Assembly (NCBI GenBank): GCA_964480875.1
Contig: CAYZRT010000004.1
Span: 1-63,913 of the forward strand
DNA from: an uncultured Smithella sp.
GTDB taxonomy: Bacteria > Desulfobacterota > Syntrophia > Syntrophales > Smithellaceae
Length of the DNA stretch: 63,913 bases
Reading direction: 5' to 3'
Part shown: positions 34,272 through 63,250 of the stretch, in pieces
Layout: each line of letters opens with the position of its first letter
How positions within the stretch are numbered: the stretch's first letter is position 1
The notes under the pieces: model-generated
What the model was told of the DNA's origin: nothing
Database searches by the model: none
The model's input: the letters and a program-made list of their open reading frames with translations, nothing else
Made by a program: the position numbers and the translations under genes

Positions 34272-34285
34272 TAAGGAGGCCAATA

Positions 34286-35566: not shown

Positions 35567-35577
35567 GAGACCGAACC

Positions 35578-36015
35578 ATGCAAGAAGGCAATAAGGGAGT
35601 GATTGATTTAACCGACCGCGTGCTGAAGGAGCTGCTCAAAAAGCCGGGCTTCAAGGAGAATGTCCGCACTGTGCTCCAGAATATCGATCCGGAATCGAGC
35701 CGCAGGCTGGTCAGGACGATGATGTGGCATGATCCGGAGTTTTTTCTGGGCGTACTGGGCGCTGTTCCCTCCATTGCCAATTCCTTGGTTCAATGCGTGG
35801 ACGAACTGCTCATTCAGCTCAACGAAAAATTTTCGCCGCAGCTGCTTCACGACTTTATGAAGTCGATTGTTTTGTCGCTGGACAAGGAAACTCTGGAAAG
35901 TATTGTCCGCAACGGGAAAGTGCTGGGAACGCAATTGTGGGTCATTGCGGAAGAAACATACAATGAACAGCAGGCTTCCAATACTGATACGGAGGGAGAT
36001 GAACATGGAAAATAA
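35578..36015 (+). CDS. Hypothetical helical protein, paralog 1 of 3
   Basis: 146 aa. It shares a ~75-aa module (NIDPESS...WHDPEFFLGVLGAVPSIANS...LNEKFSPQLLHDF...LDKETLESIV) with the next gene. Confidence 0.6.
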   Translation: MQEGNKGVIDLTDRVLKELLKKPGFKENVRTVLQNIDPESSRRLVRTMMWHDPEFFLGVLGAVPSIANSLVQCVDELLIQLNEKFSPQLLHDFMKSIVLSLDKETLESIVRNGKVLGTQLWVIAEETYNEQQASNTDTEGDEHGK

Positions 36016-36664
36016 CACCGTGATGCCCGCCGAAGGTGGCGTAATGAAAGAGGTGTTAAGCACACCCTTCGTGAAAGATTTGATTCGCAGTAATTTGCAG
36101 AACATCAAACCGGACAAAACGCATCCGGTGGTTAACGCTCTGATCTGGCAGGATCCGGAATTCATTCTGTCCGTTCTGGGATCGATTCCTACGGTCGTCA
36201 ATTCTTGCACCGGCGCTCTGGCGGAAGCGGGAAAACAAATCAATGAGAAATTTTCACCGGTACTGCTCAGGGATTATGTCGGGAGCATTCTGAAAGATAT
36301 TGACACGGAAGAATTGAAAGCCCTCGTTGAAGCTTACGTCGACCTTGGGAAAAATCTCTGGGAGGTTTCGCCGGAATTCAGGGAAATGGCGGGTCAAGCT
36401 TTAAAAGAAGATGCGCCGCCGCTGATCGGCAGAGGAATCAGTTCGGCCTGCCGCTTCGTTAATGAGGTCAGTAAAGAAGACCCGCGCGTGGTGAGCAAAT
36501 TTGTTTCCGATGTCGTTGCCAATATTGACGGCGATGAGTTTAAGGACGCGACTCATACGATTGTCAACGCGGTCCTTGATCAGAAGCTTCATTTGTTTTC
36601 CTGGACGTGGCAGTTGTTGTGCAAAAGGATGAAGAAGAAAAGTAAGAGAAAGGGTCATTATTGA
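36005..36664 (+). CDS. Hypothetical helical protein, paralog 2 of 3
   Basis: The start (36005, or 35999) overlaps the upstream stop, and GGAGGG lies upstream. The shared module is NIKPDKT...WQDPEFILSVLGSIPTVVNS...INEKFSPVLLRDY...IDTEELKALV. Confidence 0.6.
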   Translation: MENNTVMPAEGGVMKEVLSTPFVKDLIRSNLQNIKPDKTHPVVNALIWQDPEFILSVLGSIPTVVNSCTGALAEAGKQINEKFSPVLLRDYVGSILKDIDTEELKALVEAYVDLGKNLWEVSPEFREMAGQALKEDAPPLIGRGISSACRFVNEVSKEDPRVVSKFVSDVVANIDGDEFKDATHTIVNAVLDQKLHLFSWTWQLLCKRMKKKSKRKGHY

Positions 36665-36688
36665 AGATATTGAATGGAGGGATATTCC

Positions 36689-37972
36689 ATGAGTAATGTT
36701 GAAAAACCGGTTCAACCGGATAATGCCGCCGACCTTACCGGCAGTGTCGTGTGGAAAACAGTTAAAACTCCCATGATCAGAAAATTGATTACTGCCGCAG
36801 TTCATGAGGCACTAAAGGACTGGTCGGGCGACAGCAAGCTCAAGGCACGGATGTCCTCAAGCGTGGAAAATGTCGTGGAAAGTGTTTTGTCCACGGCAGA
36901 CAAAGCCGACGGCAAGATGGGCGTCGAACTGGGGAAGCTTTTAACCGCTTTTGCCCGGGAGACGAACGAGGAATTGAAGAAAGGATTAAAGGTCATTGAA
37001 GATCCCCGTCAGACCGCCATTAATGATTTTATCGTCAACACCGATTTTGGTGAGGTTAAGGAGATGATGGACCGCTCCGAAGGGCCTGTCATTCAAAACC
37101 TTGACATTGCCGTCGAATGCATCTGGAGATATCCGGCCAAAGTCGCATCGATACTGGCCTCACTCGTTTCCGCAGGCAATATCTCCGTCAAGAGCATTTC
37201 CATTATTATTAAGTCGCTTCTTGATAATCTCGGTCCGGATCTAACGGCCGATATTCTTCTTTCCATCGTGAGGGAGCTCAATGGCAAGGAAATAGGCAAG
37301 CTAACCAACAATGTTTCCGAACTGCTCCGTCGTATGCACACGGGGAGCCTCCTGCTGTCCAGGGGCGGCAAGTCACTTTTTGAAATTTACCTGACCAACC
37401 TTCTCAAGGATGCCGTCAGAGAGATAGATCCCGTCATTTTTACTAAAGCGCGCATCGCTCTGGCCGAAGACGGCGAAACCGTCGCCAAGTCCCTGGCGGA
37501 AGTGATGAGTGAAAATGAAAAAATGCTTTTTGCATCCGTGGCCGCCTATGCCGCTCTGGAGAATCCGAAGATCAGGGCCCGGGCCATTAAAATGAACCTT
37601 TATGAAAATGCCGATCAGGAAAAATTTATCGAAGCGGCAGCCAGCGGTATTTCCGATCTGGACACACAGGTCATGGCGGAGAATTTCAATGCAGCGCTCA
37701 GAATTATAAACAATATTCATGAAGCCAAGCCGGAGCTCTTTACGACTCTTCTGCGCGGATTTGCCGATTCCGTGGATGAAGATGAGCTGCAAAAAACGGC
37801 CCAATGGCTTGTTCCGGAGATTGTCGGCACTTTTAAAACGCTGGCTCCTGCGGCAATGCCTTCATTAATCAACGGATTCTGCGACATGGTTAAGGCAGAT
37901 CAAAGCGAGGAAGCCAGAAAGGCTATGGAAAACCTTAGATCTGTAATTTTAGCAGACGGAGGTGCGAAATGA
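36689..37972 (+). CDS. Hypothetical helical protein, distant paralog 3 of 3
   Basis: 427 aa from ATG 36689 (GGAGGG upstream). It is all-helical by composition with no Cys motifs, and shows weaker resemblance to the shared module (NLDIAVECIWRYPAKVASILASLVSAGN...). Confidence 0.55.
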   Translation: MSNVEKPVQPDNAADLTGSVVWKTVKTPMIRKLITAAVHEALKDWSGDSKLKARMSSSVENVVESVLSTADKADGKMGVELGKLLTAFARETNEELKKGLKVIEDPRQTAINDFIVNTDFGEVKEMMDRSEGPVIQNLDIAVECIWRYPAKVASILASLVSAGNISVKSISIIIKSLLDNLGPDLTADILLSIVRELNGKEIGKLTNNVSELLRRMHTGSLLLSRGGKSLFEIYLTNLLKDAVREIDPVIFTKARIALAEDGETVAKSLAEVMSENEKMLFASVAAYAALENPKIRARAIKMNLYENADQEKFIEAAASGISDLDTQVMAENFNAALRIINNIHEAKPELFTTLLRGFADSVDEDELQKTAQWLVPEIVGTFKTLAPAAMPSLINGFCDMVKADQSEEARKAMENLRSVILADGGAK

Positions 37973-39102
37973 TGAACGACTGGAAAGAAATTGTCAACAC
38001 AACAGAAAATTCCTACGTAAAAAAATGGAAAGAAAAAGGCAAGGCCGTCATTGGTTATCCATGTACCTTCGTTCCCGATGAAATTATTTATGCCGCCGAT
38101 ATTCTGCCTTATCGTTTAAGAGGAACGGGAACAACTTCTTCTTCCATCGGAGACACTTATTTCGGACCGGTGATCTGCAGTTTTCCCAAATGCGTTCTGC
38201 AACTTGCCGGAGAAGGAAAGTTTAATTTCCTTGACGGCACAATCATCGTGCCGGGATGCGATTCCATGAGAAGGCTGGATGAATGCTGGCGCAAGGCGGG
38301 CGAAGATTATCCGGGCATTGTCCCGGGATTCTTTCACTACTTCGGCGTACCCCATAAAGTGACTGACTATTCTCTGAAATGGTTTCATGAAGAAACGATA
38401 AAACTGCAGGGAAAAATCGAGGAACATTTCCACGTCAAGATAACCGATGAAGCCCTGAAAGGCGCCATACGAGTTTATAACGAAAGCAGAAAACTGCTCA
38501 TCCAGTTGGACAAGCTGCGCATCAAAGATGACGTTGTCATGACCGGAGAAGACGCGTTGATTATTATCCTGGCCAGCGCCGCCATGCCACGCGACGAATT
38601 CAACAAAATGCTTCGCAAAACCTTGTCGCAACTGGAAACGAAGAAAGAAACGATCAAGGGTAAAAAAAGGCTGATGCTGGTGGGATCCGCAAGTGACGAT
38701 CCGGAGTTCATGAAGGTTATCGAGGATTGCGGAGCCGTCATCGTCGCCGACACCATGTGTTTCGGTTCCCGCTCTTACAGTGATCTTACCGAGGAAGATG
38801 GTGATCCGCTGTTTGCTTTGGCTAAACGTTATCTCAATCATGCCTATTGTCCGCGAATGTTCGGATACTACAAGGAAAGATTAAAGTACATCATGGTCCG
38901 GGCGAAAGAAGCCAAAGTGGACGGGATTATTCTGCAGAATATCCGTTTCTGCGATCTGCACGGTTCGGAAAACGGCATTTTCGAAAGAGATCTGGAAAAA
39001 GAAGGCATCCCCTGCATGAGAATGGAGCGCGAGTACGGTCCGCTGACCGAGTCGGGACGTGTAAAAATGCGGGTTGACGCATTTCTGGAAAGAATTTCTT
39101 AA
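37969..39102 (+). CDS. BCR/HAD-family subunit, small type (BcrC/BadD/HgdB-like)
   Basis: 377 aa, with an ATGA overlap with the upstream gene. Conserved Cys contexts: GPVICSFPKC, VPGCDSMRRL, ADTMCFGSRSY and IRFCDLHG. Confidence 0.85.
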   Translation: MMNDWKEIVNTTENSYVKKWKEKGKAVIGYPCTFVPDEIIYAADILPYRLRGTGTTSSSIGDTYFGPVICSFPKCVLQLAGEGKFNFLDGTIIVPGCDSMRRLDECWRKAGEDYPGIVPGFFHYFGVPHKVTDYSLKWFHEETIKLQGKIEEHFHVKITDEALKGAIRVYNESRKLLIQLDKLRIKDDVVMTGEDALIIILASAAMPRDEFNKMLRKTLSQLETKKETIKGKKRLMLVGSASDDPEFMKVIEDCGAVIVADTMCFGSRSYSDLTEEDGDPLFALAKRYLNHAYCPRMFGYYKERLKYIMVRAKEAKVDGIILQNIRFCDLHGSENGIFERDLEKEGIPCMRMEREYGPLTESGRVKMRVDAFLERIS

Positions 39103-39455: not shown

Positions 39456-40859
39456 ATGAAGAAGGAGACTAGAGAATACAATTTTGACTGGAATATGTGG
39501 ACGATTCTGGAAAATGCCTCCAAGACGGCGGATGGTTCCCGCAAGGAATACGAAACGCTTCTCCCGTATATTCCTCACTATCGCAACGTACTGGATGCTT
39601 TTGCCAAGCACGGAGAACCGGGCATCCTTTTTTTGAAGATTATCGCCAAATACGCCAATGATTGCGTGCGCGCTCATATCGAGGGCAGAAAAACAGCGGG
39701 GGTAACATTCTGTTTTGCCACGCCCATTTTGTACGCTTTCAACATTCAGCCCATTGCGCTGGAACCGTGGAGCGTTCTGGCTACGGTTGTTTTGAAAAGG
39801 GGAACCGCCGAATTTCTGGATTATTGCAGCGAACTCGGTTTTACCGAAACATCCTGTTCATCGCAAAGAGGATCGCTGGGTGCTTATCTGTGCGGCTTGG
39901 CGACAAGCCTCGATTTTGTTGTTTATGACTCGCCGGGCATATGCGATACCAATGCCAACTCATTTTCGTTTGCCGCCTCCTATCTGGATATTCCCTTCTA
40001 TCAGTTAAACTACCCTTACACCCTGACTGATGAACGGGCGACGGAATATCACCGGGCGGATTTCAGGGGGCTGATAAAGTTTCTGGAAGAACAGACGGGC
40101 AGAAAGATGGATATGGATAGGCTGCGCGACGTCATGAATGAATCCAGAAAACAGGATGACCTGACCTGTGAATTGCTGGATTTACAGAGGCTCAGGCCCT
40201 GTCCCATGCCGCCGATATACGAGTTGATGCTTTACGGCGGGCGTTTCATGATGAACGGCACCCGGGAATACACGCTACTGCTGGAGTCCATGCTGAAGCA
40301 CACCCGAAAGAAAGCCGGGGAAGGCAAGGCCGGAACGACATCCGGCGAAGAAAAAGCCCGGGGTCTTTTCTGTTATATCGACCATTACACAACCGACGGA
40401 CGGCTTTGGGATTTCCTCGATCAACGCAATATTTCGCATATGGGGTCCATCCTGTTCAACTTCTGGCAGAAAGACAGTTTATACGCCGGGGGCAAGGAGG
40501 ACGAAGGCTATCGTTTTGATGACGAACACCTTGACGCCATCATTGATTCCCTTGCCGCCCAGATGTCCAGAATGCCGATGGTCAAACAAATCAGAGGGCC
40601 TTATGACGCGCCGGGCATGTGGCTGGACGACACCCTGGGCGCGATAAACATTATGAAGCCGGATTTCGTTGTTTATATGGGAACGATGGGTTGCCGCAAT
40701 ACCTGGGGAATGGTGAAACCTTTTGTTCGCGATCTGGAAAAGCACGGCATTCCGACGCTTTATATTTACGCGGACAGTTTTGATGACCGGGTGCAATCAT
40801 GGCAAGCCGTGGCGGATAAGCTTGAAGAGTTTCTGAATGTTCGTAAAATAGTGACATGA
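39456..40859 (+). CDS. BCR/HAD-family subunit, large type (BcrB/BadE/HgdA-like), copy 1
   Basis: 467 aa. TETSCSSQRGSLGAYL, YDSPGICDTNANSF and YMGTMGCRNTWG. Confidence 0.85.
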   Translation: MKKETREYNFDWNMWTILENASKTADGSRKEYETLLPYIPHYRNVLDAFAKHGEPGILFLKIIAKYANDCVRAHIEGRKTAGVTFCFATPILYAFNIQPIALEPWSVLATVVLKRGTAEFLDYCSELGFTETSCSSQRGSLGAYLCGLATSLDFVVYDSPGICDTNANSFSFAASYLDIPFYQLNYPYTLTDERATEYHRADFRGLIKFLEEQTGRKMDMDRLRDVMNESRKQDDLTCELLDLQRLRPCPMPPIYELMLYGGRFMMNGTREYTLLLESMLKHTRKKAGEGKAGTTSGEEKARGLFCYIDHYTTDGRLWDFLDQRNISHMGSILFNFWQKDSLYAGGKEDEGYRFDDEHLDAIIDSLAAQMSRMPMVKQIRGPYDAPGMWLDDTLGAINIMKPDFVVYMGTMGCRNTWGMVKPFVRDLEKHGIPTLYIYADSFDDRVQSWQAVADKLEEFLNVRKIVT

Positions 40860-40942: not shown

Positions 40943-42346
40943 ATGAAAAGAGAAACTAGAGAATATAATTTTGACTGGAGCCTCTGGAATATTCTGGAAA
41001 ACGCGGCAAAAACATGTGACGGATCCCAAAAAGAATATGAAACTCTTCTTCCTTTCATACACCACTACAGGGATGTCTTGGATGCTTTTGTGAAACAGGG
41101 GGAACCTGGTGTTCTCTTTTTGAAGTTACTGGCCCGTTACATGAAAGACTGTGTCACGGCAAAGGAAAAGGGCAAGAAAGTTTCCATGACGACATTTTGT
41201 CTGGCTATTCCTATTCTTTATGCTTTTAATATCCAACCTCTGGCGCTGGAAGTGTGGTCTGTTCTGGGCACCATTGTACTCAAGCGAGGCACTGCGGAAT
41301 TTCTGGATTTCTGCTGTGAATTGGGATTTACGGAAACATCCTGCTCCGCCCAGCGTGGGGCTTTGGGTGCTTACCTGTCAGGTCTGGGCGTAAAACCGGA
41401 TCTCATCGTTTGTGACTCTCCAGGTGTCTGCGACACGAATGCCAATTCTTTCGCTTTTGCGGCAGCGTATCTTGATTTGCCGTTTTATCAATTAAATTAC
41501 CCGTCCACGTTAACAGAAGGTCGTTCGGAAAGATACCACCGTGAAGACTACAGAGGATTGATAAAATTTCTGGAAGAACAGACCGGCCAGAAACTCGACA
41601 TCGACAAACTAGGGGCAATTATAAGAGAAACTAAAAAGCAGGATGAACTTGCCTGTGAAATATTCGAAATGCTCAGGCTAAAACCTTCCCCTGTTCCCGC
41701 CATTTATGATCTTCTGCTCTATGGCGGAAAATTCATGATGGGTGGATTACCTCAATACACGGAACTACTGGAAGCGATGGTCCGAAAAGCAAAAGATAAT
41801 ATGCAAAAAGGAATCGCCGGAACATCATCAGGCAGGGAAAAGCTACGGGGGATGTTTTGCTATATTGATCATTATACAACAGATGCCCGGATGTGGAGTT
41901 TTCTGGATAGTAAAGATATCAGTCATCTTGGTTCCCTGCTCTTCGGCTTCTGGCAGACGGAAATGCCTTATGCGAAAGGCCGGGAAGCAGAAGGCTATGC
42001 CATTGATGACCGTTCTCTGGATTCGATGATTGATTCCATGGCCGCCATGAATTCCCGTATGCCCATGGTCAAACAAATCAGAGGGCCTTATGATATGCCG
42101 GAGATGTGGCGCGAAGATGTTATGGGTATGGTAAAGTTAACAAAGCCGGATTTCGTGGCCTATATGGGAACCATCGGCTGCCGCAACACCTGGGGCATGA
42201 TTAAATTGCTGGTCAGGGATCTGGAGAATGCCGGTGTCCCGACCATTGTTCTTTATGGAGACGGCTTTGACGACCGGGTACAGTCGTGGGAATCCATAAG
42301 CGATAAAATATCTGAATTCATACATGTCAGGGGGATATTAAAATGA
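40943..42346 (+). CDS. BCR/HAD-family subunit, large type, copy 2 (tandem paralog)
   Basis: 467 aa, collinear with copy 1 with no indels and roughly two thirds identical by eye. TETSCSAQRGALGAYL, CDSPGVCDTNANSF and YMGTIGCRNTWG. Confidence 0.85.
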   Translation: MKRETREYNFDWSLWNILENAAKTCDGSQKEYETLLPFIHHYRDVLDAFVKQGEPGVLFLKLLARYMKDCVTAKEKGKKVSMTTFCLAIPILYAFNIQPLALEVWSVLGTIVLKRGTAEFLDFCCELGFTETSCSAQRGALGAYLSGLGVKPDLIVCDSPGVCDTNANSFAFAAAYLDLPFYQLNYPSTLTEGRSERYHREDYRGLIKFLEEQTGQKLDIDKLGAIIRETKKQDELACEIFEMLRLKPSPVPAIYDLLLYGGKFMMGGLPQYTELLEAMVRKAKDNMQKGIAGTSSGREKLRGMFCYIDHYTTDARMWSFLDSKDISHLGSLLFGFWQTEMPYAKGREAEGYAIDDRSLDSMIDSMAAMNSRMPMVKQIRGPYDMPEMWREDVMGMVKLTKPDFVAYMGTIGCRNTWGMIKLLVRDLENAGVPTIVLYGDGFDDRVQSWESISDKISEFIHVRGILK

Positions 42347-43131
42347 TTGTAGCGGGATGTGATGTGGGCTCTCTGACCGCCAAGGCGGTCATCATGAACG
42401 GCTCTATTCTGGGGTCTGCGGTTATCAAGGCGAAAGCCAAACCGGAAGAATCAGCCTCCAAAGTTATGAATCAGGCTCTGGCCAAAGCCGGTTTGAAAAT
42501 GGAGGATATTTCTTTCTGCGTCGGCACCGGATACGGCAGAAATAAAATTCCCTTTGTCAATGTAACGATGTCGGAAATTGCCTGTCACGGCAGGGGAGCG
42601 CAATGGATCATGCCATCCGTTAGGACGGTTATTGACATCGGAGGGCAGGATTGCAAAGCTATGCGTCTGGACAAGGATGGAAATGTTCTTAAGTTTTCTA
42701 CCAATGACAAGTGTGCTGCCGGAACAGGAAGGTTTCTGGAGGTCATGGCCAAACTGCTGGGAGTGAGTCTTGATGAACTGGGAACCATATCGGAAAACGC
42801 CAAGGACCCTCTGTCGCTTTCGTCCACCTGTACGGTCTGGGTACAGGCCGAAGTGATTCACCACCTCAATTCCCAAAAACCCATAGAAGATATTGCCGCG
42901 GCGATCAACCGGGCAATGGCCATTCGTGTCGCCATTTTGGCCAATCAAGTCAGCGCCGAAAGGGACATCTGCATGTCGGGTGGAGTGGCGAAAAACAAAG
43001 GCGTCGTTGCCGATTTGGAAAAGGTGCTGGGAATGAAGATTAAAAAGCTGAAATATGATCCTCAAATCGTCGGAGCGATAGGCGCAGCAGTCATCGCCGG
43101 GGAGAAAGCAAAAGGAGGGAAGGCATCATGA
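42343..43131 (+). CDS. BcrAD/BadFG/HgdC-type activase ATPase, copy 1
   Basis: MIVAGCDVGSLTAKAVIM, GTGYGR, EIACHGRGA, IDIGGQDCKA, NDKCAAGTGRFLE and GGVAKN. ATGA overlap with the upstream gene. Confidence 0.9.
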   Translation: MIVAGCDVGSLTAKAVIMNGSILGSAVIKAKAKPEESASKVMNQALAKAGLKMEDISFCVGTGYGRNKIPFVNVTMSEIACHGRGAQWIMPSVRTVIDIGGQDCKAMRLDKDGNVLKFSTNDKCAAGTGRFLEVMAKLLGVSLDELGTISENAKDPLSLSSTCTVWVQAEVIHHLNSQKPIEDIAAAINRAMAIRVAILANQVSAERDICMSGGVAKNKGVVADLEKVLGMKIKKLKYDPQIVGAIGAAVIAGEKAKGGKAS

Positions 43132-43907
43132 TCGTAGCCGGATGCGACGTCGGTTCTTTGACGGCCAAAGCCGTTATTATGAAAAATAATGAAATACTGG
43201 CAGCAAAAGTTATACGGGCGAAATCCCATCCGGAGGAGTCGGCGCGGAAAATCATGGCGCAGGCCCTGGAACAGGCTGGTCTTGTAATAGATGAAATATC
43301 CTATTGCGTGGGAACGGGCTACGGCCGGGCCAGCATTCCTTTCGCCACTTCGGTGGAATCGGAAATTGCCTGCCATGGCAGAGGCGCCCAGTGGCAGATG
43401 CCGTCGGTGAGAATGGTCATTGACATCGGCGGGCAGGATGCCAAGGCGATTCGTCTCGATGAAAAAGGAAACGTTATCAGATATGTTTATAATGATAAAT
43501 GCGCTTCCGGAACGGGCAGGTTTCTGGAGGTGATGGCCGACGCGTTAAGCATTGACATTACTGAAATGGGAGCTGTTTCCCTTTCTTCACAAAATCCGAT
43601 CAGCATTTCCAATCAATGCGTCATCTTCGCGGAAACGGAAATTGTTTCTTTAATCAATGAGGGCAAAAACATGGCCGATATTGTCAGCGGCTTGCACAAT
43701 GCATTAGCGCACAGGGTTGCCGCATTGGCCAAGGGAATTGAACTGCAGGAAGACATCGTCATGACGGGCGGCGTTGCCAAGAACGAAGGCATGTTTATGG
43801 CCCTGGAAAAAGCCCTGAGCAAAAAAATTAAAAATGTCGGAAGAGATCCTCAGGTCAATGGCGCCTTGGGAGCGGCTATTTTTGCCGCCGAACGTTTGAA
43901 AAATTAA
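43128..43907 (+). CDS. BcrAD/BadFG/HgdC-type activase ATPase, copy 2
   Basis: It has the same motif set (NDKCASGTGRFLE, GGVAKN). The first 18 aa are identical to copy 1, but the DNA differs at many synonymous sites. Confidence 0.9.
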   Translation: MIVAGCDVGSLTAKAVIMKNNEILAAKVIRAKSHPEESARKIMAQALEQAGLVIDEISYCVGTGYGRASIPFATSVESEIACHGRGAQWQMPSVRMVIDIGGQDAKAIRLDEKGNVIRYVYNDKCASGTGRFLEVMADALSIDITEMGAVSLSSQNPISISNQCVIFAETEIVSLINEGKNMADIVSGLHNALAHRVAALAKGIELQEDIVMTGGVAKNEGMFMALEKALSKKIKNVGRDPQVNGALGAAIFAAERLKN

Positions 43908-43920
43908 GGATGTAATTTTT

Positions 43921-44655
43921 ATGGAGCTTTTCGAACACACCTTCGATGAAATCCGAAATTTTTCAAGCAAAAGAAAAGGTAAATCCTGGATTCCGGAACC
44001 GTATGCCAAGCACTGGCCGGAAGGGGGCGGCAGAGACGTTGTTTTGTCTGATGACATGGGCGTGGAGCTGGGCAGTCCGCAGATGGAATCCTCTTCCTGC
44101 TTAATCTGGACGGAAAATTCCGATCTGGTTTGTGATCGCAAAATTACACTGATCGGTCCCGATGTTCCGTCGAGCTTAAACACGAGCTTGTCTTTCGGAA
44201 AGGTCGTTCTTGTTGCAGTCAGTGGATTTAATGAGGACAATACTTACGACCGTTACAAGGAAATGGAATCTGTCAGATATGCCATCGATCTGAAAGGATA
44301 CATGATCAGGGCCGTATCCCAGTATCAGCGGGAATGGAGCCGTATCAGCCGAGAGGCCGTGCAAAACGGTTTTTCTTTTGAGGTGCTGGGTCAGGCTCTG
44401 CGGAATGAATATATGAAGAAAGATTTTATTCATTCCGTCGAATTTCTTTTTGTTACGTCAAATTCGGAAGATGTGCGCGAACTCCAGGAAATAACAAAAA
44501 ATGTGGGAAGGACAATCAATGCCCTGGATAAAATGCTCAACGAAATAAATTCAGATTGTGACGAGTGCGAGTATAACGATGTTTGCGATGAGGTGGCGGA
44601 ACTTAAAAGCATGAGAAAATTACGTAATGGAAAAAGGATGAACCAACATGACTAA
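43921..44655 (+). CDS. Truncated acetyl-CoA synthase (AcsB/CdhC) middle-domain-like protein
   Basis: MGVELGSPQ..., KITLIGPDV, WSRISREAVQNGFSFEVLGQAL, VEFLFVTSNSEDVRELQEI and a terminal CDECEYNDVC align by eye with Moorella AcsB (VEMGGNRTP..., IEVIGPDI, WLRVSKDAVAKGFRFKNYGEIL, VQVTIFTDEAKVKEYMEV, CVLCQSFAPNHVC) as I recall that sequence. Confidence 0.6.
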   Translation: MELFEHTFDEIRNFSSKRKGKSWIPEPYAKHWPEGGGRDVVLSDDMGVELGSPQMESSSCLIWTENSDLVCDRKITLIGPDVPSSLNTSLSFGKVVLVAVSGFNEDNTYDRYKEMESVRYAIDLKGYMIRAVSQYQREWSRISREAVQNGFSFEVLGQALRNEYMKKDFIHSVEFLFVTSNSEDVRELQEITKNVGRTINALDKMLNEINSDCDECEYNDVCDEVAELKSMRKLRNGKRMNQHD

Positions 44656-45415
44656 AAAAACAAAGACGATTGCTTTGTGCGGAAAAGGCGGGGTGGGAAA
44701 GACGTCGGTATCCGCGCTGATGGTAAAGAATCTTACTCAAAGAAAAGACATCAAGGTGCTGGCCATCGATGCCGATCCTGCCATAGGCCTTTGCACGGCA
44801 TTGGGAATACAAATCAAAAAAACCGTGGATGATATCAGAAATGATTTAATCAATTCTATTAGGAAAGGAGCAAGCCAGGATAAAGCCGCAACGCTGAACA
44901 GGCTGGATTATGAGCTTTTTGATGCCCTGACGCAATTCAAAAATATCGCTTTTCTGGCCATAGGACGGCCGGAATCGGAAGGTTGCTTCTGCAAGGTCAA
45001 CTCTCTTTTGAAAGATATCATTCAGGATCTGGCGAAAAATTTTGACGTGGTGCTCATCGACGGAGAAGCCGGCGTCGAACAAATCAACCGCAGAGTGATG
45101 AAAACGGTCGATCATCTGATTATGATATCCGACACTTCTGCCAAGGGGATTCATGTTGCCCATACCATCAAGCATCTGGCCGAGGACAACAAAGCCGTAA
45201 ATTATAAAAGCATGGGAATGATTTTGAACCGCGTCAGAAATGAGAGCGAAGTACACGATATCCGAAAGAACATCCCCATCAATATTCTGGGATGGCTGCC
45301 GGAGGACGATCTGATCAGGGAATTCGATTTTTACGGCAGGTCTTTCCTTGATTTTCCGGATACGGCCGAAGCGGGCAAAAAAGTAAACGTCATGATAGAC
45401 GCCATGAATTTATAA
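44648..45415 (+). CDS. cooC: CooC/AcsF-type P-loop maturation ATPase
   Basis: The P-loop is IALCGKGGVGKTS, followed by LAIDADP, the CxC metal motif in PESEGCFCKV, and VLIDGEAGVEQ. The start overlaps the upstream gene by 8 nt. Confidence 0.85.
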   Translation: MTKKTKTIALCGKGGVGKTSVSALMVKNLTQRKDIKVLAIDADPAIGLCTALGIQIKKTVDDIRNDLINSIRKGASQDKAATLNRLDYELFDALTQFKNIAFLAIGRPESEGCFCKVNSLLKDIIQDLAKNFDVVLIDGEAGVEQINRRVMKTVDHLIMISDTSAKGIHVAHTIKHLAEDNKAVNYKSMGMILNRVRNESEVHDIRKNIPINILGWLPEDDLIREFDFYGRSFLDFPDTAEAGKKVNVMIDAMNL

Positions 45416-48324: not shown

Positions 48325-49506
48325 ATGGAGAAGGAGCCTATTGGGGGAATATGTGCCGAAGATGTAGCTCACTATCAGGATCTGGCCCGTCAGTACGCCA
48401 AAAAGTCGCTGCTGCCGGTTTTTGAGGGTGAAAATTCCGACGGGAATTTGGCGCTGCTGCAGGAAAAACTGAACACCGCTTTCGATATAGGCATGGCCGC
48501 CTCTCCGGATGAGTCGTTTTCCGGCTGCCAGTATGGAATCTGGGGTAGCGCAACCGCCGAGACGGGGATCATGCCTTCGCTGCTTCTTTTATCCATTTTG
48601 GCCGAAACATGCGGCGGCGCCGCCATGTGCCTTCATGCACAGGGCGTAGCTTCCAACCTGCTTCTTCAGACCAAAAAAAAACTGCCGTTTATCCCGATGA
48701 GGGTCGGGCTTTGCCTTCAGGAAGGACTTTATCCGCCTTTTCTGGGAACTTTGATTGCGCCCGATCAAGACGCTCCCGCGCAAATCACGACTACTGCCGT
48801 TCAGAAAAATAATAAATACATCATCAACGGTTCCAAGTCGTTTGTTTATTCGTTGTACTATGTCAATGCTTACGTGGTGATGGCCCGCATTAATGAAAAA
48901 TGGGGATGTTTTCTTGTGAACGTGGATGAAAAAAATATCGAAAGAATAGATATAGGCTTACGAACCGGTCTTCGTGCTTGTCTGGTTGAAAACGTCCGGT
49001 TCAACGATGTGGAAATTCCGGCGGAAGCGCGCCTAGATGATGGAGATGCCCGTGAGCTGGTTATTCGGGCTTTAAATCTTAACTGGGCGGGCATGTCGGC
49101 CATTGCGGTGGGCATAGCAAAAGGTGCGGCGGCGGCGGCGCGCAAATTTACCGCCGAACGTTATCAGGGTGGTAAGCTGATTAAAGAACATCCGACAATA
49201 AAAATGCTCATTGCCGGCGCGGAAGCTTCGGTCGCCGCAGCGGAAGCAAGTGTATATTCGTTGCAGACCGTCGATTTATCCGCGTTTACCGGGTTGAAAA
49301 AGTGCGCTGCCGCTAAATTGGCGGTTACTGAACTTTGTTCGCGTGCCGTGACAGACTGTCTCCAGACGTTCGGTGGCTACGGTTATATGGAAGATTTCGG
49401 CATGGAGAAACGGCTCAGAGATGTTACCGTGCTGAAATCGGCGTCAGGTTCCCCGACGTACCTCAAGCAATTGATTTTCGATATTGAGAAGGAGGAAACG
49501 CTATGA
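48325..49506 (+). CDS. Acyl-CoA dehydrogenase-like protein lacking the YEGT glutamate
   Basis: ACAD fold (KYIINGSKSFV..., ERYQGGKLI). The C-terminal block reads LRDVTVLKSASGS instead of ...IYEGT. Confidence 0.75.
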   Translation: MEKEPIGGICAEDVAHYQDLARQYAKKSLLPVFEGENSDGNLALLQEKLNTAFDIGMAASPDESFSGCQYGIWGSATAETGIMPSLLLLSILAETCGGAAMCLHAQGVASNLLLQTKKKLPFIPMRVGLCLQEGLYPPFLGTLIAPDQDAPAQITTTAVQKNNKYIINGSKSFVYSLYYVNAYVVMARINEKWGCFLVNVDEKNIERIDIGLRTGLRACLVENVRFNDVEIPAEARLDDGDARELVIRALNLNWAGMSAIAVGIAKGAAAAARKFTAERYQGGKLIKEHPTIKMLIAGAEASVAAAEASVYSLQTVDLSAFTGLKKCAAAKLAVTELCSRAVTDCLQTFGGYGYMEDFGMEKRLRDVTVLKSASGSPTYLKQLIFDIEKEETL

Positions 49507-50828
49507 ACGAATCTCTGGAAGAACGCATTGAGCAGCTCAAACTGAGTAACGCGACTCAGAAGATGAATTTTTTCGGGCGTCTTCTGGTGGACAATCGTGA
49601 GATGAGTCTCTGGGATCATGATACAAAAACCCTCCCGTGGGGCGCGCGCCGCTGGCGGCGCAAAGCGCTGAAGTTCTCCCGTGAATATATTCGTCCTCTC
49701 GCAAAAACGGCAGATCTGCTCCCTCATGATTACAATCCCAAACCGCTATTGTCCCAGGCGGCTAAACAGGGATTTCAAACCCTGCTTTTGGTTCCCCCTC
49801 TGGGCACTGCAAGTACTATGACTTATCTGAGGAATGCTTCGCTGCTGGTGGCGGTCGTGGGAGAAGAATTTGCTACGGAATGCGGAGGACTGGCGTTGCT
49901 TTTGCTTGCGCATAATCTGGGCATTGCTCCTCTGGTATTATCGGGCAGCCTGAGAAATTACTTCAATCATTTAATTCCTTTTTATTACAAATCTTATTTT
50001 CAGAACAGTTCGGAAGGCATGTCCTTTGCCATCACCGAACCCGGCGCCGGTTCCGATGTCGAAGAAACAGAGGGAGGCGCGCTGGCTAAACTTGTTACCA
50101 CGGCGAAATATGTGCCTGAAAAGAAAGGCTATATTCTCAACGGGCAGAAATGCTTTATAACCAACGGGGCTATTGCCAGTAAGGTAACTGTGTACGCAAA
50201 ACTGGAAGGCGAAGGCATCGAATCATGGACATGCTTTTTGTTGGAAAAAGGGATGCCGGGCTTTTCCGTAGGCCGTAGTGAACGCAAGATGGGACAGCGT
50301 GCGTCGGACGCATCCGAGCTTATTTTTGACAATGTTTTTGTCCCCGAAAAAAATCTTGTCGGCAAGGTTTGTTCCGGTTGGGCCAACAATCGCAATGTTC
50401 TAAATTATTCGCGTCCGGTTGTCGGCGCGATGGCTCTGGGACACGGACGCGGAGCTTTCGAACGCTGTCTCGAATTTTGCCGGAATACCAATCTGGGACC
50501 GAAGCGTCTCATTGAATATCAGGATGTTCAACTGGAGATGGCGGATATGGCCATCAGCCTTTGGGCGGCGCGCTCCATGATTTGGCAAAGCTGCCGGCAA
50601 TTCAGATGTTATCAGTCGGCTTCGGCTTCTGCGAAAGTTTTTGCTTCCGACACGGCATTCAAAGTATGCAATCAGGCCATGGAATTGATGGGAGATCACG
50701 GTTATCTGCACGCACATGGCGTTGAGCGGGCATGGCGCGATTCGCGTTTGACGCAGATATACGAAGGCACAAACCAGATCAACCGGCTGGCGCTTTTTGA
50801 ACATCATCTGAGCACGGATTTTAGATAG
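49503..50828 (+). CDS. Acyl-CoA dehydrogenase (canonical catalytic Glu present)
   Basis: FAITEPGAGSDV, GQKCFITNG and WRDSRLTQIYEGTNQINRL. ATGA overlap with the upstream ACAD-like gene. Confidence 0.9.
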   Translation: MNESLEERIEQLKLSNATQKMNFFGRLLVDNREMSLWDHDTKTLPWGARRWRRKALKFSREYIRPLAKTADLLPHDYNPKPLLSQAAKQGFQTLLLVPPLGTASTMTYLRNASLLVAVVGEEFATECGGLALLLLAHNLGIAPLVLSGSLRNYFNHLIPFYYKSYFQNSSEGMSFAITEPGAGSDVEETEGGALAKLVTTAKYVPEKKGYILNGQKCFITNGAIASKVTVYAKLEGEGIESWTCFLLEKGMPGFSVGRSERKMGQRASDASELIFDNVFVPEKNLVGKVCSGWANNRNVLNYSRPVVGAMALGHGRGAFERCLEFCRNTNLGPKRLIEYQDVQLEMADMAISLWAARSMIWQSCRQFRCYQSASASAKVFASDTAFKVCNQAMELMGDHGYLHAHGVERAWRDSRLTQIYEGTNQINRLALFEHHLSTDFR

Positions 50829-50928: not shown

Positions 50929-51696
50929 ATGATGAAAAGCATTTTTATTACAGGGGCATCAGCCGGCATCGGAAAAGCAACAGCCCTTCTTTTCGCTAGT
51001 AAAGGATGGTTTGTCGGCATTACCGATGTTAATGCCGCCGGTCTCGAAGAGCTTAGAAAATGTTCAGGAGAAAAAATAGGCTACTTAGCGCCGCTTGATG
51101 TCATGGATGCGGAAAAAGTTTCATCAGTATTGAAGGAGTTCAACAAGGCCGCGGGAGGAAGAATGGACGTGTTGTTCAATAATGCGGGCATTCTGCGGGT
51201 AGCTCCTTTTGAAAATATCGCTCTTAAAGATCATCAGGCGATTCTTAATATAAACGTGGGAGGTGTTATTAATTGCACCTATCATGCTTTTCCGTATCTT
51301 AAAAACACCAAAGGATCGCGGGTCATTAATATGGCTTCTGTCGCGTCAATCATAGGAACACCGACTCAGGCGACATACGCCACATCAAAATTCGGGGTGA
51401 GAGGATTTACGGAGGCATTAAACGTCGAATGGAAGCGACATGGCATACATGTTTGTGACATCATGCCGTGCTATGTTAACACGCCAATGGTTAAACAAAA
51501 TCCCGGCAAAATTGTTGATAGTGTCGGTGTCCATATAACAGCAGAGGATGTAGCCGCTACTGTCTGGAAGGCCGCCCGGCGCAATCGTCTCCACTGGATG
51601 ATTGACAGACTTCCAAACAGACTTTTTTACAAGTTTAGATGCTTTGTTCCCGATTCACTAGAAAAGTTTGTCCTAAGAAAAATGGCCGGGTTATAA
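50929..51696 (+). CDS. Short-chain dehydrogenase/reductase
   Basis: IFITGASAGIGKA, NNAG and YATSKFGVRG (YxxxK). Confidence 0.85.
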   Translation: MMKSIFITGASAGIGKATALLFASKGWFVGITDVNAAGLEELRKCSGEKIGYLAPLDVMDAEKVSSVLKEFNKAAGGRMDVLFNNAGILRVAPFENIALKDHQAILNINVGGVINCTYHAFPYLKNTKGSRVINMASVASIIGTPTQATYATSKFGVRGFTEALNVEWKRHGIHVCDIMPCYVNTPMVKQNPGKIVDSVGVHITAEDVAATVWKAARRNRLHWMIDRLPNRLFYKFRCFVPDSLEKFVLRKMAGL

Positions 51697-51731
51697 AAAT
51701 CCTAATCGTTGACCGGCAGGTAATTGCTGAT

Positions 51732-52415
51732 ATGCCTAGCATAAAGAGAGAAGAAATGACTTTGATGCGTAAAGATCAATCTATTGAATGTTTTCAGGGC
51801 AAAGATTTGAAAGACTTCAGTTATGAGGATCTGATGAAGCTTAACCGGAAGCAACTGATGGAGTTGTTCTTTGAGCTTAACGCACCGTCCATGTCGGAGA
51901 TGAAAGGAGAATATCGTGCCGCATTATTGGATAGCGGGTATATCATCAATATGTTCCTGGCCAAGTTGTATCTTCATTTCACATGGGGAAATTGGCAACA
52001 CAAAGCCTTTGAAGCATTGGATCAACAGCACGGTCACGGTTACAATACTTTCATTACGACTCAATCAAAACTATATGAAAATTACTTTTTAGCAGTCTTC
52101 ATGAGAATGATGAGCATTATATGTTCTTTATTCCGTCTGTATAACCCTCAGCGAATGGCGAGAATCATGCTCAATAAAACAGCCATTGTTTCTTCGGTTT
52201 TCGATGCGAGACCTTCATTTCAACTGAGCTATCGGGATTTCAATACCTTTTATACCAACACCATGACAGACGAAGTTCGTAAAGTGAACGATAACCTTTT
52301 TCTGGGTATAGGAAGATTGACCATTACTTTCGGCAAATTCAATCCGATGCCTTTTGTGCTGATCGGTCCGCCTGATCCGTGGGTCGGTCCCGATATTCAA
52401 TACCCGGACAAATGA
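51732..52415 (+). CDS. Hypothetical protein, possibly GXWXG/DUF4334-like
   Basis: The start at ATG 51732 avoids overlap with the SDR gene. MKGEYRAALLDSG...WGNWQHKAF and TDEVRKVNDNLFLGIG resemble that family from memory. No function is known. Confidence 0.4.
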   Translation: MPSIKREEMTLMRKDQSIECFQGKDLKDFSYEDLMKLNRKQLMELFFELNAPSMSEMKGEYRAALLDSGYIINMFLAKLYLHFTWGNWQHKAFEALDQQHGHGYNTFITTQSKLYENYFLAVFMRMMSIICSLFRLYNPQRMARIMLNKTAIVSSVFDARPSFQLSYRDFNTFYTNTMTDEVRKVNDNLFLGIGRLTITFGKFNPMPFVLIGPPDPWVGPDIQYPDK

Positions 52416-52482: not shown

Positions 52483-53742
52483 ATGAGAGATGTTTATATT
52501 ATCGGCGTCGGGATGACGCCCTTCGGAAAACACATGGATAAAAATATGAAGACCTTGGCTGCTGAGGCGGTCAACGCTTCATTGCAGCATGCGGGTTTAA
52601 CCAAAGAAGCTATACAAACAGCTGTTGTCGGTAATGCCTATCAGGGTATTGTGACCGGTCAGGAATCGATTCGCGGACAGGTTGTGCTGCGGGCTATGGG
52701 CATCGGCGATATTCCCGTTACCAACGTTGAAAACGCCTGCTGTTCATCAGCGACGGCATTACAGGTTGCCTGGATGGATGTTGCCCTCGGACTTCATGAC
52801 ATTGGCCTCGTGCTCGGTATGGAAAAGATGTACATGGACGACCGGGAAAAGAGATTGAAACTCTACTCATCATCGGCTGACGTCGAGGTTGTGGAGTTGT
52901 TTGTTAAGGCAATGAAGGAAGATGCCGAGCGCAGGCGAAAGGAAGCCGAGAAGAACGCAGCGCCTGGCGGTGAGAAAAAAAAGGAGAAGGTCGAAGGAAG
53001 CGCTTTCATGGAAATTTATGCGGCGGGGGCTCGATTACATATGGAACATTATGGCGTTACCCAGCGTCAGTTGGCGGTGATCAGTGCCAAAAACCACGCC
53101 CATAGTGTACACAATCCTTACGCGCAGTATAGAACAAGCTTTACCGTTGATGAAGTTCTCGCGGCGCCGACTGTCGCATTTCCACTGACACGTCCCATGT
53201 GCTCGCCGGTGGGTGATGGCGCGGCTGCTTTGGTTATTTGTTCCGGTGATTATGTGAAAAAGATTGGCGCAAAAAAGCCGGTAAAAATTCTGGCGACAGT
53301 GCTGGGCGGAGGTGTGGACAGAGATTTCTTCGCTCCGGATATCGGCGAGCGCCTCTCGAAAGTGGCTTATGAAAAGGCAGGTGTCGGTCCGGAAGATATC
53401 GACGTGGCAGAAGTCCATGACGCGACGGCATTCGGCGAATTGCGGGCTGCCGAGGACATGGGATTTTGTAAGATGGGAGAGGGGGGAATCTTTGCTGAGC
53501 AGGGTCATTCAACAATAGGCGGAAAGCTTCCCATCAATCCCTCCGGCGGCTTGGAATCCAAGGGACATCCGGTCGGGGCGACCGGCGCGGGTCAGATTGC
53601 CGAACTGGTCTGGCAACTGCGTGGTGAAGCGGGAAAACGCCAGGTGGAAGGAGCACGTATTGCGCTTGCTGAAAACGGCGGCGGAAATATCGGCGTGGAA
53701 GAAGCAGCCATGGTGATTACAATTCTACAGGCCGATTTTTAA
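52483..53742 (+). CDS. SCPx/nonspecific-lipid-transfer-type thiolase
   Basis: VYIIGVGMTPFGK, NVENACCSSATA, NPSGGLESKGHPVGATG and ENGGG. It contains a charged insert (ERRRKEAEKNAAPGGEKKKEKVEG). Confidence 0.85.
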   Translation: MRDVYIIGVGMTPFGKHMDKNMKTLAAEAVNASLQHAGLTKEAIQTAVVGNAYQGIVTGQESIRGQVVLRAMGIGDIPVTNVENACCSSATALQVAWMDVALGLHDIGLVLGMEKMYMDDREKRLKLYSSSADVEVVELFVKAMKEDAERRRKEAEKNAAPGGEKKKEKVEGSAFMEIYAAGARLHMEHYGVTQRQLAVISAKNHAHSVHNPYAQYRTSFTVDEVLAAPTVAFPLTRPMCSPVGDGAAALVICSGDYVKKIGAKKPVKILATVLGGGVDRDFFAPDIGERLSKVAYEKAGVGPEDIDVAEVHDATAFGELRAAEDMGFCKMGEGGIFAEQGHSTIGGKLPINPSGGLESKGHPVGATGAGQIAELVWQLRGEAGKRQVEGARIALAENGGGNIGVEEAAMVITILQADF

Positions 53743-62440: not shown

Positions 62441-63250
62441 ATGAAAAAAGACATCATCGATAAAATTCAAGTTTATACGGAAAGAGAAAATATTCTGATG
62501 GGCGCAGCGCCGGCGGACGAACTCAATAAAGCCGCCCCGGAGGGATTTCGTCCGAAAGATTTATTGCCGAATGCTAAAACCGTGCTGGTGTTTGCCCAAC
62601 CTCTGCCGCTGGCTGTTTTTCTGGTGCCTGGAGAAAATAATAATTTTTATCAAAGGTCGTCCTATACGCACTACCTGATCATGGACAAACTGGCCAACGA
62701 TTTAAGCCTGATGATTCAGCAGGGCGGTTATCCATCGCTTCCGATTCCATCATACAGTCCCCTGCGATTTTATAAAGGTGAGCCGCGCGGTATGATCAGT
62801 CTAAAACATGCCGCAGTTTATGCCGGCCTGGGAAAAATGGGACGCAACACCATCCTGATTAATCCTGAACATGGAAACATCATGCGTCTGGGTGCATTGA
62901 TGACGGAAATGGAGTGGCCGGAATATCCCGCCGTCAACGAAAAGAGTCTCTGTCCGGACAAATGCCGGATTTGCGAAGAGGCCTGTCCGGTTGGCGCGCT
63001 GAAGGACGGCAATATTGATATCATGAAATGCATGGGCAACTGCATCAAACATATTCTACTGCCTCCGAAGTTTATGCTGCCCATGATGAAACGTACCGTT
63101 GCAGCAAGTAAACTAATGACCAGATTCATGGAACTCACCTCGCTTAATTTCTTTGAAACCTACGCCATCGATTGCGCGGCCTGCCTCAAAGCCTGCATCC
63201 ATTTTCCCGGAAACAAGATAAAAAATAAAAGCGATAAAACCGCACGGTGA
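62441..63250 (+). CDS. Fe-S protein, epoxyqueuosine-reductase/reductive-dehalogenase-like ferredoxin domain
   Basis: CPDKCRICEEACPVGAL plus later Cys groups (CMGNC, CAACLKAC). The N-terminal half resembles the QueG N-domain only loosely. Confidence 0.5.
   Translation: MKKDIIDKIQVYTERENILMGAAPADELNKAAPEGFRPKDLLPNAKTVLVFAQPLPLAVFLVPGENNNFYQRSSYTHYLIMDKLANDLSLMIQQGGYPSLPIPSYSPLRFYKGEPRGMISLKHAAVYAGLGKMGRNTILINPEHGNIMRLGALMTEMEWPEYPAVNEKSLCPDKCRICEEACPVGALKDGNIDIMKCMGNCIKHILLPPKFMLPMMKRTVAASKLMTRFMELTSLNFFETYAIDCAACLKACIHFPGNKIKNKSDKTAR

Follow-up and report, generated by a model that had tools for sequence, protein, structure and literature searches.

Why should a fragment of acetyl-CoA synthase (ACS), followed by an ATPase of the CooC type, be encoded at the end of an operon for a reductase of the benzoyl-CoA reductase kind? 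This question is raised by the 63,913-nucleotide stretch of DNA analysed here (the window), contig CAYZRT010000004.1 of an uncultured Smithella sp. (GenBank assembly GCA_964480875.1), in which a CdhC-like short protein of 244 residues (positions 43921-44655) and a CooC-like P-loop ATPase of 255 residues (44648-45415) close a co-directional operon of 33.0-45.4 kb, all features of which are on the + strand. We found that the two proteins are a co-evolving pair, that they are integral to ATP-dependent HGD-D/BcrAD operons and that they do not belong to CO or acetyl-CoA metabolism. The HGD-D/BcrAD enzymes concerned are members of the superfamily that comprises class-I benzoyl-CoA reductases (BCR), 2-hydroxyacyl-CoA dehydratases (HAD) and double-cubane proteins.

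The CdhC-like protein matched the Pfam family CdhC (PF03598) over residues 41-181 with an E-value of 6.5e-14 (52.5 bits for a cutoff of 24), while it missed all the NCBIfam equivalog cutoffs for ACS (39.7-53.1 bits, compared with cutoffs of 356-809 for NF040764, NF003379, NF007078 and TIGR00316). When it was compared with PDB sequences by phmmer, residues 41-193 aligned with residues 333-482 of Moorella ACS, and residues 41-218 with residues 332-503 of the C. hydrogenoformans enzyme. The matched strings (VELGS/VEMGG, ITLIGPDV/IEVIGPDI and WSRISREAVQNGFSFEVLGQAL/WLRVSKDAVAKGFRFKNYGEIL) reproduced those picked out by eye in a preliminary description of the window. Profile-to-PDB searches with the CdhC-like families retrieved ACS with E-values of 4e-10 to 1.8e-22. 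An AlphaFold2 model built from 75 homologues had a pLDDT of 83.6; it was confident over residues 1-200 and low only at residues 209-222, around a C-terminal cysteine motif. The 23 best matches of this model in a Foldseek search of the PDB were all ACS/CdhC chains (E-values down to 2.9e-10, 163-213 aligned columns), the next match having an E-value of 0.34. The preliminary description had proposed a truncated ACS that keeps the middle part and three candidate cysteines but has lost the Cys-Gly-Cys nickel site; Pfam, the PDB alignments and the AlphaFold/Foldseek comparison all agree with this, and the relationship to ACS is significant by both profile and fold.

The cysteines of the protein are at positions 60, 71, 213, 216 and 222. 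The last three form the motif C213-x2-C216-x5-C222 (DCDECEYNDVCDEV, 44557-44586), a presumed Fe-S or metal site, and the chain ends only 22 residues beyond C222. No C-x-C or CGC was found anywhere in the 244 residues. The profile of a sister subfamily with four cysteines aligned with residues 312-517 of ACS (E 1.8e-22), the alignment continuing through the cysteine motif. In Moorella numbering, it placed the additional upstream cysteine on Cys506, the first cysteine of the CxxC on Cys509 and the last cysteine of the motif on Cys518 (HVC), the register being ambiguous in this region. Because this alignment runs onto the Cys506/509/518 region, the motif is homologous to the opening, cubane-binding part of the A-cluster motif, and from this homology it would bind a cubane-type Fe-S cluster or another metal centre. 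Of the four cubane ligands, only the Cys506/509/518 region is represented; Cys528, the rest of domain A3 and the Cys-Gly-Cys Ni site are missing. The CdhC-like protein is thus a real, conserved short protein made of the A2 (middle) domain of ACS plus the first A-cluster cysteines, and it cannot have acetyl-CoA synthase activity. With AcsB and archaeal CdhC it shares the fold and a detectable homology over about 150-200 residues, the CoA-contacting segment W-x-R-[IV]-S and the cysteines homologous to cubane ligands. Unlike AcsB, it has no domain A1 (nor has archaeal CdhC), no Cys528 and no Cys-Gly-Cys Ni-Ni site, and almost the whole of A3 is missing; its gene never adjoins genes for carbon monoxide dehydrogenase (CODH), the corrinoid Fe-S protein or the methyltransferase in the annotated neighbourhoods.

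A word-indexed search returned 344 close clusters. The best 120 of these 344 were mostly 233-253 residues long, with a few shorter fragments, and those that carried a name were mostly from Syntrophaceae/Smithella metagenome-assembled genomes (MAGs). An uncultured Smithella sp. (L007) carried the nearest genome copy, 91% identical. When 1.84 billion representatives (50% identity) were searched exhaustively with a profile, 720 matches had E <= 1e-3, 220 of them E <= 1e-30; the best 150 representatives were all short (at most 308 residues, mostly about 230-270). The CxxCx5C motif was present in 82 of 82 complete orthologues and in 139 of 150 divergent representatives, the other 11 looking like fragments or frameshifts. 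Its three cysteines are the sole invariant residues other than glycine in the whole family, at 24-35% identity to the window protein; E49, R130, R141 and D223 are nearly invariant. One divergent subgroup, the four-cysteine form (subgroup B below), has an extra upstream cysteine (C-x3-5-C-x2-C-x5-C), a compact pattern of the type usual for a [4Fe-4S] site. The motif region is highly acidic (pI about 4). Public annotation names such short proteins 'carbon monoxide dehydrogenase' or 'CO dehydrogenase/acetyl-CoA synthase beta subunit', for example in a Lachnospiraceae MAG (P0270), a Helarchaeota MAG (P0485) and many JGI entries, all of which are devoid of the catalytic domain.

The A2 segment (residues 41-193; 44041-44499) also retains residues of the CoA site. 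In ACS, acetyl-CoA is bound mainly by A2: the adenine stacks on Trp405 (C. autoethanogenum numbering), the diphosphate faces a Lys/Arg patch, and His386 and Gly399 are near the acetyl group (bioRxiv 10.1101/2024.08.05.606187). The same domain is also the docking site for the Fe-S domain of the corrinoid protein (PMC12289521). With a constant offset of 22, His386, Gly399 and Trp405 correspond to His408, Gly421 and Trp427 of the Moorella enzyme, and these to R119, S133 and W139 of the CdhC-like protein. W139 is invariant in the window subfamily and in subgroup B and is replaced by Gln in the other divergent subgroup (subgroup A), while R141 (Moorella Arg429) is nearly invariant in all subfamilies. 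Moorella Trp418 had been considered as the retained CoA-binding tryptophan; it aligns with R130 and was rejected, W139 being the match to the structurally defined adenine-stacking residue. The cysteine motif follows A2 exactly where A3 would place the A-cluster at the CoA thiol.

The CdhC-like open reading frame (ORF), which has AAGGA in front of it, starts 13 nucleotides beyond the stop codon of the ATPase gene that precedes it. Its TAA stop (44653-44655; end CAT GAC TAA) overlaps by 8 nucleotides (ATGACTAA) the CooC-like gene, the ATG of which, at 44648, is preceded by a Shine-Dalgarno-like AAAGGA; by this overlap, the second gene is translationally coupled to the first. The best PDB sequence match of the ATPase was CooC1 (3kje, E 1.5e-19), followed by MinD (E 1.7e-8). 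Its deviant Walker A sequence GKGGVGKT (residues 12-19; 44681-44704) aligned with the Walker A of CooC1, and the GCFCK segment that holds its CxC motif (C113-F-C115; 44984-44992) with QCYCR of CooC1. GKGGVGKT was kept in 73 of 73 orthologues and CxC in 72 of 73, and both were invariant across 108 sequences of two subfamilies. G-C-x-C-x2-N is also conserved, and the protein as a whole is very highly conserved. In JGI annotation its homologues carry the label 'CO dehydrogenase maturation factor'. The overlapping CooC homologue with an intact P-loop and a CxC motif, as initially described, was therefore borne out by GKGGVGKT, GCFCK and the 8-nucleotide overlap.

The AlphaFold model of the ATPase (pLDDT 86) resembled FleN, MinD, CooC1, BchL and NifH with TM scores all of about 0.7, CooC1 coming first (TM 0.76, 26% identity). 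As the fold search does not discriminate among MinD, FleN, CooC, BchL and NifH, the assignment to CooC rests on the sequence and the motif. The protein is equally similar by fold to the electron-transfer ATPases NifH and BchL, and the modelled structure may be compatible with a NifH-like behaviour. The one activity that is known for CooC/AcsF proteins is ATP-dependent Ni insertion beside the Fe-S cubanes of CODH/ACS (PMC6006190; Gregg et al. 2016 as cited in PMC10134865). The CooC-like protein shares with CooC/AcsF the deviant Walker A and a CxC at the same position, that of the dimer interface, and its gene lies, as that of AcsF does, beside the gene of an ACS-derived protein. It differs from them in that the neighbour is only a fragment of ACS, with no CODH or complete ACS as a client, and in that it forms a subfamily of its own, which is highly conserved and bound up with HGD-D/BcrAD operons.

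The equal closeness of the ATPase fold to MinD and FleN could be taken to mean that it is a MinD-like organiser and that the CdhC-like protein binds CoA or acyl-CoA as a regulatory or substrate-delivery protein, with a structural (e.g. Zn) cysteine motif. The function of A2 as the CoA-binding domain of ACS (bioRxiv 10.1101/2024.08.05.606187; PMC12289521) and the conservation of W139 and R141 would fit such a role. However, CxC is strictly conserved and aligned with that of CooC1, to which the sequence is far closer than to MinD; the tryptophan is not kept in subgroup A; and the HGD-D catalytic subunits themselves bind CoA esters (PMC11971306). We therefore consider a CoA-binding, MinD-organised system to be very improbable.

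Which enzyme does the pair accompany? The 377-residue N-type HGD-D subunit (37969-39102) is BzdN-like, its best PDB match being BzdN (8s02_B, E 8e-49), followed by HadC, MbdN and DCCP. In BzdNO, which was produced in E. coli, an [8Fe-9S] double cubane is held by Cys36/73/100/263/293/327 of BzdN, and a [4Fe-4S]-OH2 cluster by three cysteines of BzdO (PMC11971306). The BzdN ligands align with C32, C70, C97, C264, C294 and C328 of the 377-residue subunit, and these six cysteines were kept at >=95% in 60 primary orthologues and at >=90% in 78 homologues from the secondary sets and subgroup A (both described below). The pair is therefore characteristic of a clade of HGD-D enzymes of the double-cubane type. 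Two O-type, putatively catalytic HGD-D subunits of 467 residues each, paralogue a (39456-40859; Pfam HGD-D, E 1.6e-46) and paralogue b (40943-42346; Pfam HGD-D), have three conserved cysteines (C134, C163 and C413 in paralogue b); in the PDB, no match to BzdO was detectable for the O-type subunit and only a weak one to HadB was found, as seen with paralogue b. The two paralogues score about 759 bits against each other and there is a single N-type subunit, related loci having one or two O-type genes; this suggests that they are alternative catalytic subunits with a common double-cubane partner. The two BcrAD/BzdQ-type ATPase genes (42343-43131, Pfam BcrAD_BadFG E 1.5e-59 and TIGR00241 250 bits; 43128-43907, Pfam BcrAD_BadFG E 2.7e-56) encode two different subunits, each with a score of about 199 bits to BzdQ. 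All NCBIfam equivalog cutoffs for BzdN/O/P/Q and BcrA-D were missed (e.g. 161 bits vs 454 for BzdN and 200 vs 380 for BzdQ).

To see how general this arrangement is, we searched the ORFs of 83 independent loci (80 from reference genomes plus three metagenomic contexts) with the window proteins, each count being taken over the loci with enough flanking DNA. The CooC-like gene was immediately 3' of the CdhC-like gene in 69 of 78 loci and elsewhere in the flank in 5 more. A BcrAD ATPase was encoded upstream in 69 of 74 loci (immediately adjacent in 52), and both types of HGD-D subunit were upstream in 56 of 59. Besides Smithella/Syntrophales and Desulfomonilia, the hosts comprised numerous Desulfobacterales, among them MAGs classified as Desulfosudis oleivorans, Desulforapulum autotrophicum and Desulfocicer vacuolatum, as well as a single Bacillota MAG. 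The CooC-like gene was directly followed by a second HGD-D/HGD-D/BcrAD set, more distantly related, in 34 of 54 loci, of which 30 also had the primary set upstream; 12 of the 54 had only the primary set, as in the window. Even in the 30 loci with two flanking enzyme sets there was one CdhC/CooC pair per locus, which fits a shared accessory factor. In nine loci, a fusion of about 290 residues between flavodoxin and two [4Fe-4S] modules is encoded between the CooC-like and the second N-type gene (e.g. L011:11716-12576 and L012:11444-12346, with 7 others), and a Cys-rich Fer4 protein of about 440 residues is encoded between the second O-type gene and its activase in L011 (15290-16636) and about 10 other loci. 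Both proteins are conserved and add to the redox partners of the second enzyme set.

No CODH/ACS gene was found in the annotated neighbourhoods (L001, L003, L005 and L168-L172). A Pfam scan of the window ORFs of >=150 residues yielded, aside from the CdhC-like fragment, no match to the CODH, ACS, corrinoid Fe-S protein or pterin methyltransferase families, in line with the preliminary description, which had reported no CODH, corrinoid Fe-S protein or methyltransferase gene in the window. That the pair might be a decaying CODH/ACS remnant, or belong to a split ACS with its A3 domain specified by a gene at another site, and be functionally unconnected to the reductase, would agree with the public label 'CO dehydrogenase/acetyl-CoA synthase beta subunit'. 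Yet there are hundreds of full-length orthologues of the same size with invariant motifs, the synteny with HGD-D/BcrAD genes is strict, and no gene for CODH, an A3 domain or the corrinoid protein occurs in the annotated neighbourhoods or among the scanned window ORFs. The split-ACS variant was rejected, as no annotated neighbourhood held a second match to the CdhC/ACS families. Conservation and synteny effectively refute the remnant explanation, to which we attach almost no probability.

Two divergent subfamilies showed the same association. Subgroup A (25-28% identity) comes from gut and digester metagenomes, one member being from a Lachnospiraceae MAG. Its gene order is CooC-like, N-type HGD-D, O-type HGD-D, a single BcrAD and CdhC-like in 28 of the 35 loci with enough upstream DNA, and BcrAD is directly upstream of the CdhC-like gene in 44 of 48. 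Five of six contexts of subgroup B have the order N, O, (BcrAD), CdhC-like and CooC-like, and family-III CoA-transferases lie alongside in two cases. The three architectures are rotations of one cyclic order, CooC-N-O-BcrAD-CdhC, and the same five components are found in two diverged subfamilies (24-35% identity). The association of CdhC/CooC with HGD-D/BcrAD modules is therefore ancient and independent of gene order. The preliminary description had tentatively linked the pair to the adjacent BCR/HAD-type enzyme, for which it might assemble or donate a metallocluster, or had taken it as a possible redox or decarbonylation partner. The genomic link is real, the pair being strongly co-conserved with BCR/HAD-type genes in the 83 loci and in two more divergent subfamilies, with no CODH/ACS gene in annotated neighbourhoods; it is, however, not limited to one BCR-like operon but spans the double-cubane HGD-D clade, including single-activase modules of gut Lachnospiraceae. 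A four-cysteine short form was also observed in a Helarchaeota (Asgard archaeon) contig (L167:1103-1870), where it stands alone beside TFIIB and chaperone genes; no HGD-D, BcrAD or CooC-like gene was found within 10 kb downstream or in the approximately 1.1 kb that the contig holds upstream.

Comparison with characterised systems underlines the peculiarity of these modules. Like class-I BCR (BzdNOPQ, MbdNOPQ) and the tetrahydronaphthoyl-CoA reductase (thn), the window enzyme has a BzdN-like subunit with all six ligand cysteines, two different BcrAD-type ATPase genes and beta-oxidation-like gene surroundings. In contrast, its O-type subunit is very distant from BzdO, and characterised BCR operons carry a ferredoxin gene and neither a CdhC-like nor a CooC-like gene, the thn operon having a ferredoxin and an oxidoreductase instead of the pair (PMC12016498). 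The subgroup A and B modules, with one activase, two HGD-D subunits and the six-cysteine signature, resemble DCCP/DCCP-R and the single-activase 2-hydroxyacyl-CoA dehydratases, and the family-III CoA-transferases beside subgroup B recall the HAD systems. DCCP and HAD systems nonetheless have no ACS-fragment or CooC genes, both of which are constant members of the present modules; none of the characterised bzd, thn, HAD and DCCP systems has such genes (PMC12016498).

What, then, could the pair do for these enzymes? We tentatively favour, at rather less than an even chance, that it is an ATP-dependent accessory module for handling a metal or cluster in these reductases, i.e. for maturation or repair. 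We ranked this explanation first because metal handling is the sole established chemistry of the ATPase family, because three cysteines plus a fourth ligand that varies are reminiscent of transfer scaffolds, and because most loci have a single pair for two enzyme sets. The CooC-like/CdhC-like pair would have kept the ancestral relationship of AcsF to ACS. The CooC-like dimer would bind a metal ion or a labile cluster at its CxC interface, and ATP hydrolysis would load it onto, or move it through, the three-cysteine site of the CdhC-like protein; this site is probably a centre of the [4Fe-4S] type in which one coordination position is open or exchangeable. The CdhC-like protein would then act as a docking adaptor, carrying the metal centre to the reductase for insertion, completion or repair of a cofactor. 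For docking it may use the A2 surface, to which CoA and the corrinoid protein's Fe-S domain bind in ACS, and all the HGD-D enzyme sets encoded nearby would be served by a single pair.

Several points weigh against this proposal. No dedicated factors were needed for BzdNO to be produced in E. coli with its [8Fe-9S] and [4Fe-4S] clusters (PMC11971306); as BzdNO and DCCP can obtain their clusters in this host without helpers, a generic need in cluster assembly cannot be assumed, and a special maturase is not generally required. This leaves room for a clade-specific difference in cofactor. No metal-trafficking gene recurs near the modules, and the 25 families most often encoded around subgroup-A modules included no Ni transporter. 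Acidic residues such as those that surround the motif do not typically bind Ni, and a pure chaperone role leaves the retention of the CoA-contacting W139/R141 unexplained. The CdhC-like protein may also be the final client rather than an adaptor, the data fitting both equally well.

An electron-transfer role has to be considered as well. In about 20 subgroup-A loci, the CdhC-like gene is directly followed by a gene for a Fer4/GltD-like flavoprotein of about 950 residues (e.g. L087:10737-13577 and L096:10807-13701), and so lies between this gene and that of the activase. This flavoprotein, which has an unassigned N-terminal region of about 330 residues, is homologous to residues 27-531 of an 828-residue Fer4/GltD-like flavoprotein/nitroreductase fusion encoded in the window (55900-58386, + strand; domain order Fer4/Fer4_20/Pyr_redox_2/Fer4/nitroreductase), a candidate electron-input protein; proteins of this kind are likely to be NAD(P)H-linked in that role. 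The CdhC-like protein could accordingly be a working Fe-S adaptor or relay subunit, with an ordinary [4Fe-4S] cluster or one completed by an Asp or by the partner, that passes electrons from an NAD(P)H-dependent Fe-S flavoprotein or a ferredoxin to BcrAD, the CooC-like ATPase only maturing or gating it. No ORF with a ferredoxin motif was found in the window operon (33.0-45.4 kb) or in subgroup-A modules, whereas the bzd and thn operons encode one (PMC12016498). The acidity of the motif region (pI about 4) is ferredoxin-like, the motif is homologous to the cubane ligands of ACS, and the A2 domain of ACS docks an Fe-S domain, that of the corrinoid protein (PMC12289521). On the other hand, most CdhC-like members have three cysteines only, a standard [4Fe-4S] cluster does not need a dedicated CooC-type ATPase, and flavodoxin-ferredoxin fusions or other Fer4 proteins were encoded inside the module in 27 of 61 window-family loci, so that another carrier is often present. 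As this means that the argument of a replaced ferredoxin is not general, we downgraded the electron-carrier model, which we regard as the chief competitor of the maturation proposal, possible but unlikely.

A bolder alternative is that the CdhC-like protein, with its cubane-type site, and the CooC-like dimer, with its Cys-X-Cys, jointly or after transfer of Ni, make up an A-cluster-like heterometallic centre, which would either perform its own chemistry on CoA thioesters (carbonyl or acyl handling) or serve as an ATP-gated low-potential centre. Both halves of the ACS/AcsF relationship have been kept together across a very deep divergence, the part of the A-cluster around the bridging cysteine is kept, the CxC tripeptide is similar to Cys-Gly-Cys in ACS, and the CoA-contacting W139/R141 are conserved in two of three subfamilies. 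Against it, the CdhC-like protein has neither Cys-Gly-Cys nor an equivalent of Cys528, no Ni-uptake genes are nearby, and the tryptophan is lost in subgroup A. We judge such a centre to be very improbable. Were it to exist, it would provide the whole BCR/HAD/double-cubane clade with an ATP-gated organometallic or ultra-low-potential site located at a CoA thioester on A2, and it would be a minimal, repurposed relative of the ACS active site outside C1 metabolism, including in human-gut Lachnospiraceae.

The remaining genes of the operon and of the window can be described briefly. The operon starts after a TetR gene at 32227 with two acyl-CoA dehydrogenase (ACAD)-like genes (33030-35566), followed by genes for three mutually paralogous proteins without significant Pfam match, of 172 (35497-36015), 265 (35867-36664) and 432 residues (36674-37972). 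These are followed by the 377-residue HGD-D gene, an ORF of 92 residues, the two 467-residue HGD-D paralogues, the two BcrAD-type ATPases and the CdhC-like/CooC-like pair. The 172- and 265-residue proteins match each other with an E-value of about 1e-28, the match between the 265- and 432-residue proteins being weak, and the paralogues are kept upstream of the N-type subunit in most loci; the 432-residue protein, which precedes the N-type subunit, is encoded upstream in 55 of 59. Since ORFs 35497-36015 and 35867-36664 overlap by 150 nucleotides, the true start of the second is probably downstream of 35867. On the 3' side of the pair are a gene for a major facilitator superfamily (MFS) transporter, a TetR gene, two ACAD-like genes and genes for a short-chain dehydrogenase/reductase (SDR), SCP-x-type thiolases, a CoA ligase and the 828-residue fusion. 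The ACAD-like genes form two pairs of adjacent or overlapping genes (33030-35566 and 48325-50828), each with one divergent member, that resemble heteromeric ACADs acting on bulky (steroid or alicyclic) acyl-CoAs. Together with the SCP-x-type thiolases (52483-53742 and 59858-61261) they hint at a bulky or cyclic acyl-CoA as substrate of the reductase, and the CoA ligase gene was likewise counted toward this context. Two further ORFs among these beta-oxidation-like genes, of 258 (51639-52415) and 269 residues (62441-63250), had no Pfam match; the former is kept in the closest Smithella locus (L007:5128-5781).

The first 27 kb of the window hold B12-radical-SAM (S-adenosylmethionine) enzymes, SAM methyltransferases and genes for sugar and glycosyl transfer. 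Five or six genes for B12-binding or other radical-SAM proteins (534-2081, 2097-3425, 6551-8005, 9321-10781 on the - strand and 16460-17920, plus 15396-16451) are interspersed with SAM methyltransferases, a PMT_2-type glycosyltransferase and sugar-nucleotide genes. The GC content is 32-38% at 6-16 kb, which covers part of this cluster, compared with about 47% in the operon. The cluster may be an envelope or lipid modification island and has no relation to the CdhC/CooC pair; its SAM methyltransferases and B12-radical-SAM genes (0-27 kb) are unrelated to the Wood-Ljungdahl pathway.

We found no description of this pairing in the open-access literature and bioRxiv, to which the search was confined; a paper on 'missing CODH/ACS' in Lachnospiraceae (PMC7000372) and one on an isoprene reductase (PMC10134865) proved unrelated to it. 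The component families are known, and it is their conserved recruitment to BCR/HAD/DCCP-type enzymes that appears undescribed. Because short proteins without the catalytic domain are misleadingly annotated as CODH/ACS, false Wood-Ljungdahl calls are possible in reconstructions from MAGs. With about 500 residues in total, the pair is a naturally minimised ACS/AcsF-like system, which could make target recognition and loading by CooC/AcsF tractable. A broad branch of ATP-dependent Fe-S reductases and dehydratases, in sulfate reducers, syntrophs and gut Clostridia and in habitats ranging from sediments to the human gut, carries these two constant extra components. As no characterised member of the superfamily has them, they point to a cofactor, maturation or electron-entry biology not yet described, in enzymes that carry out some of the hardest reductions in biology.

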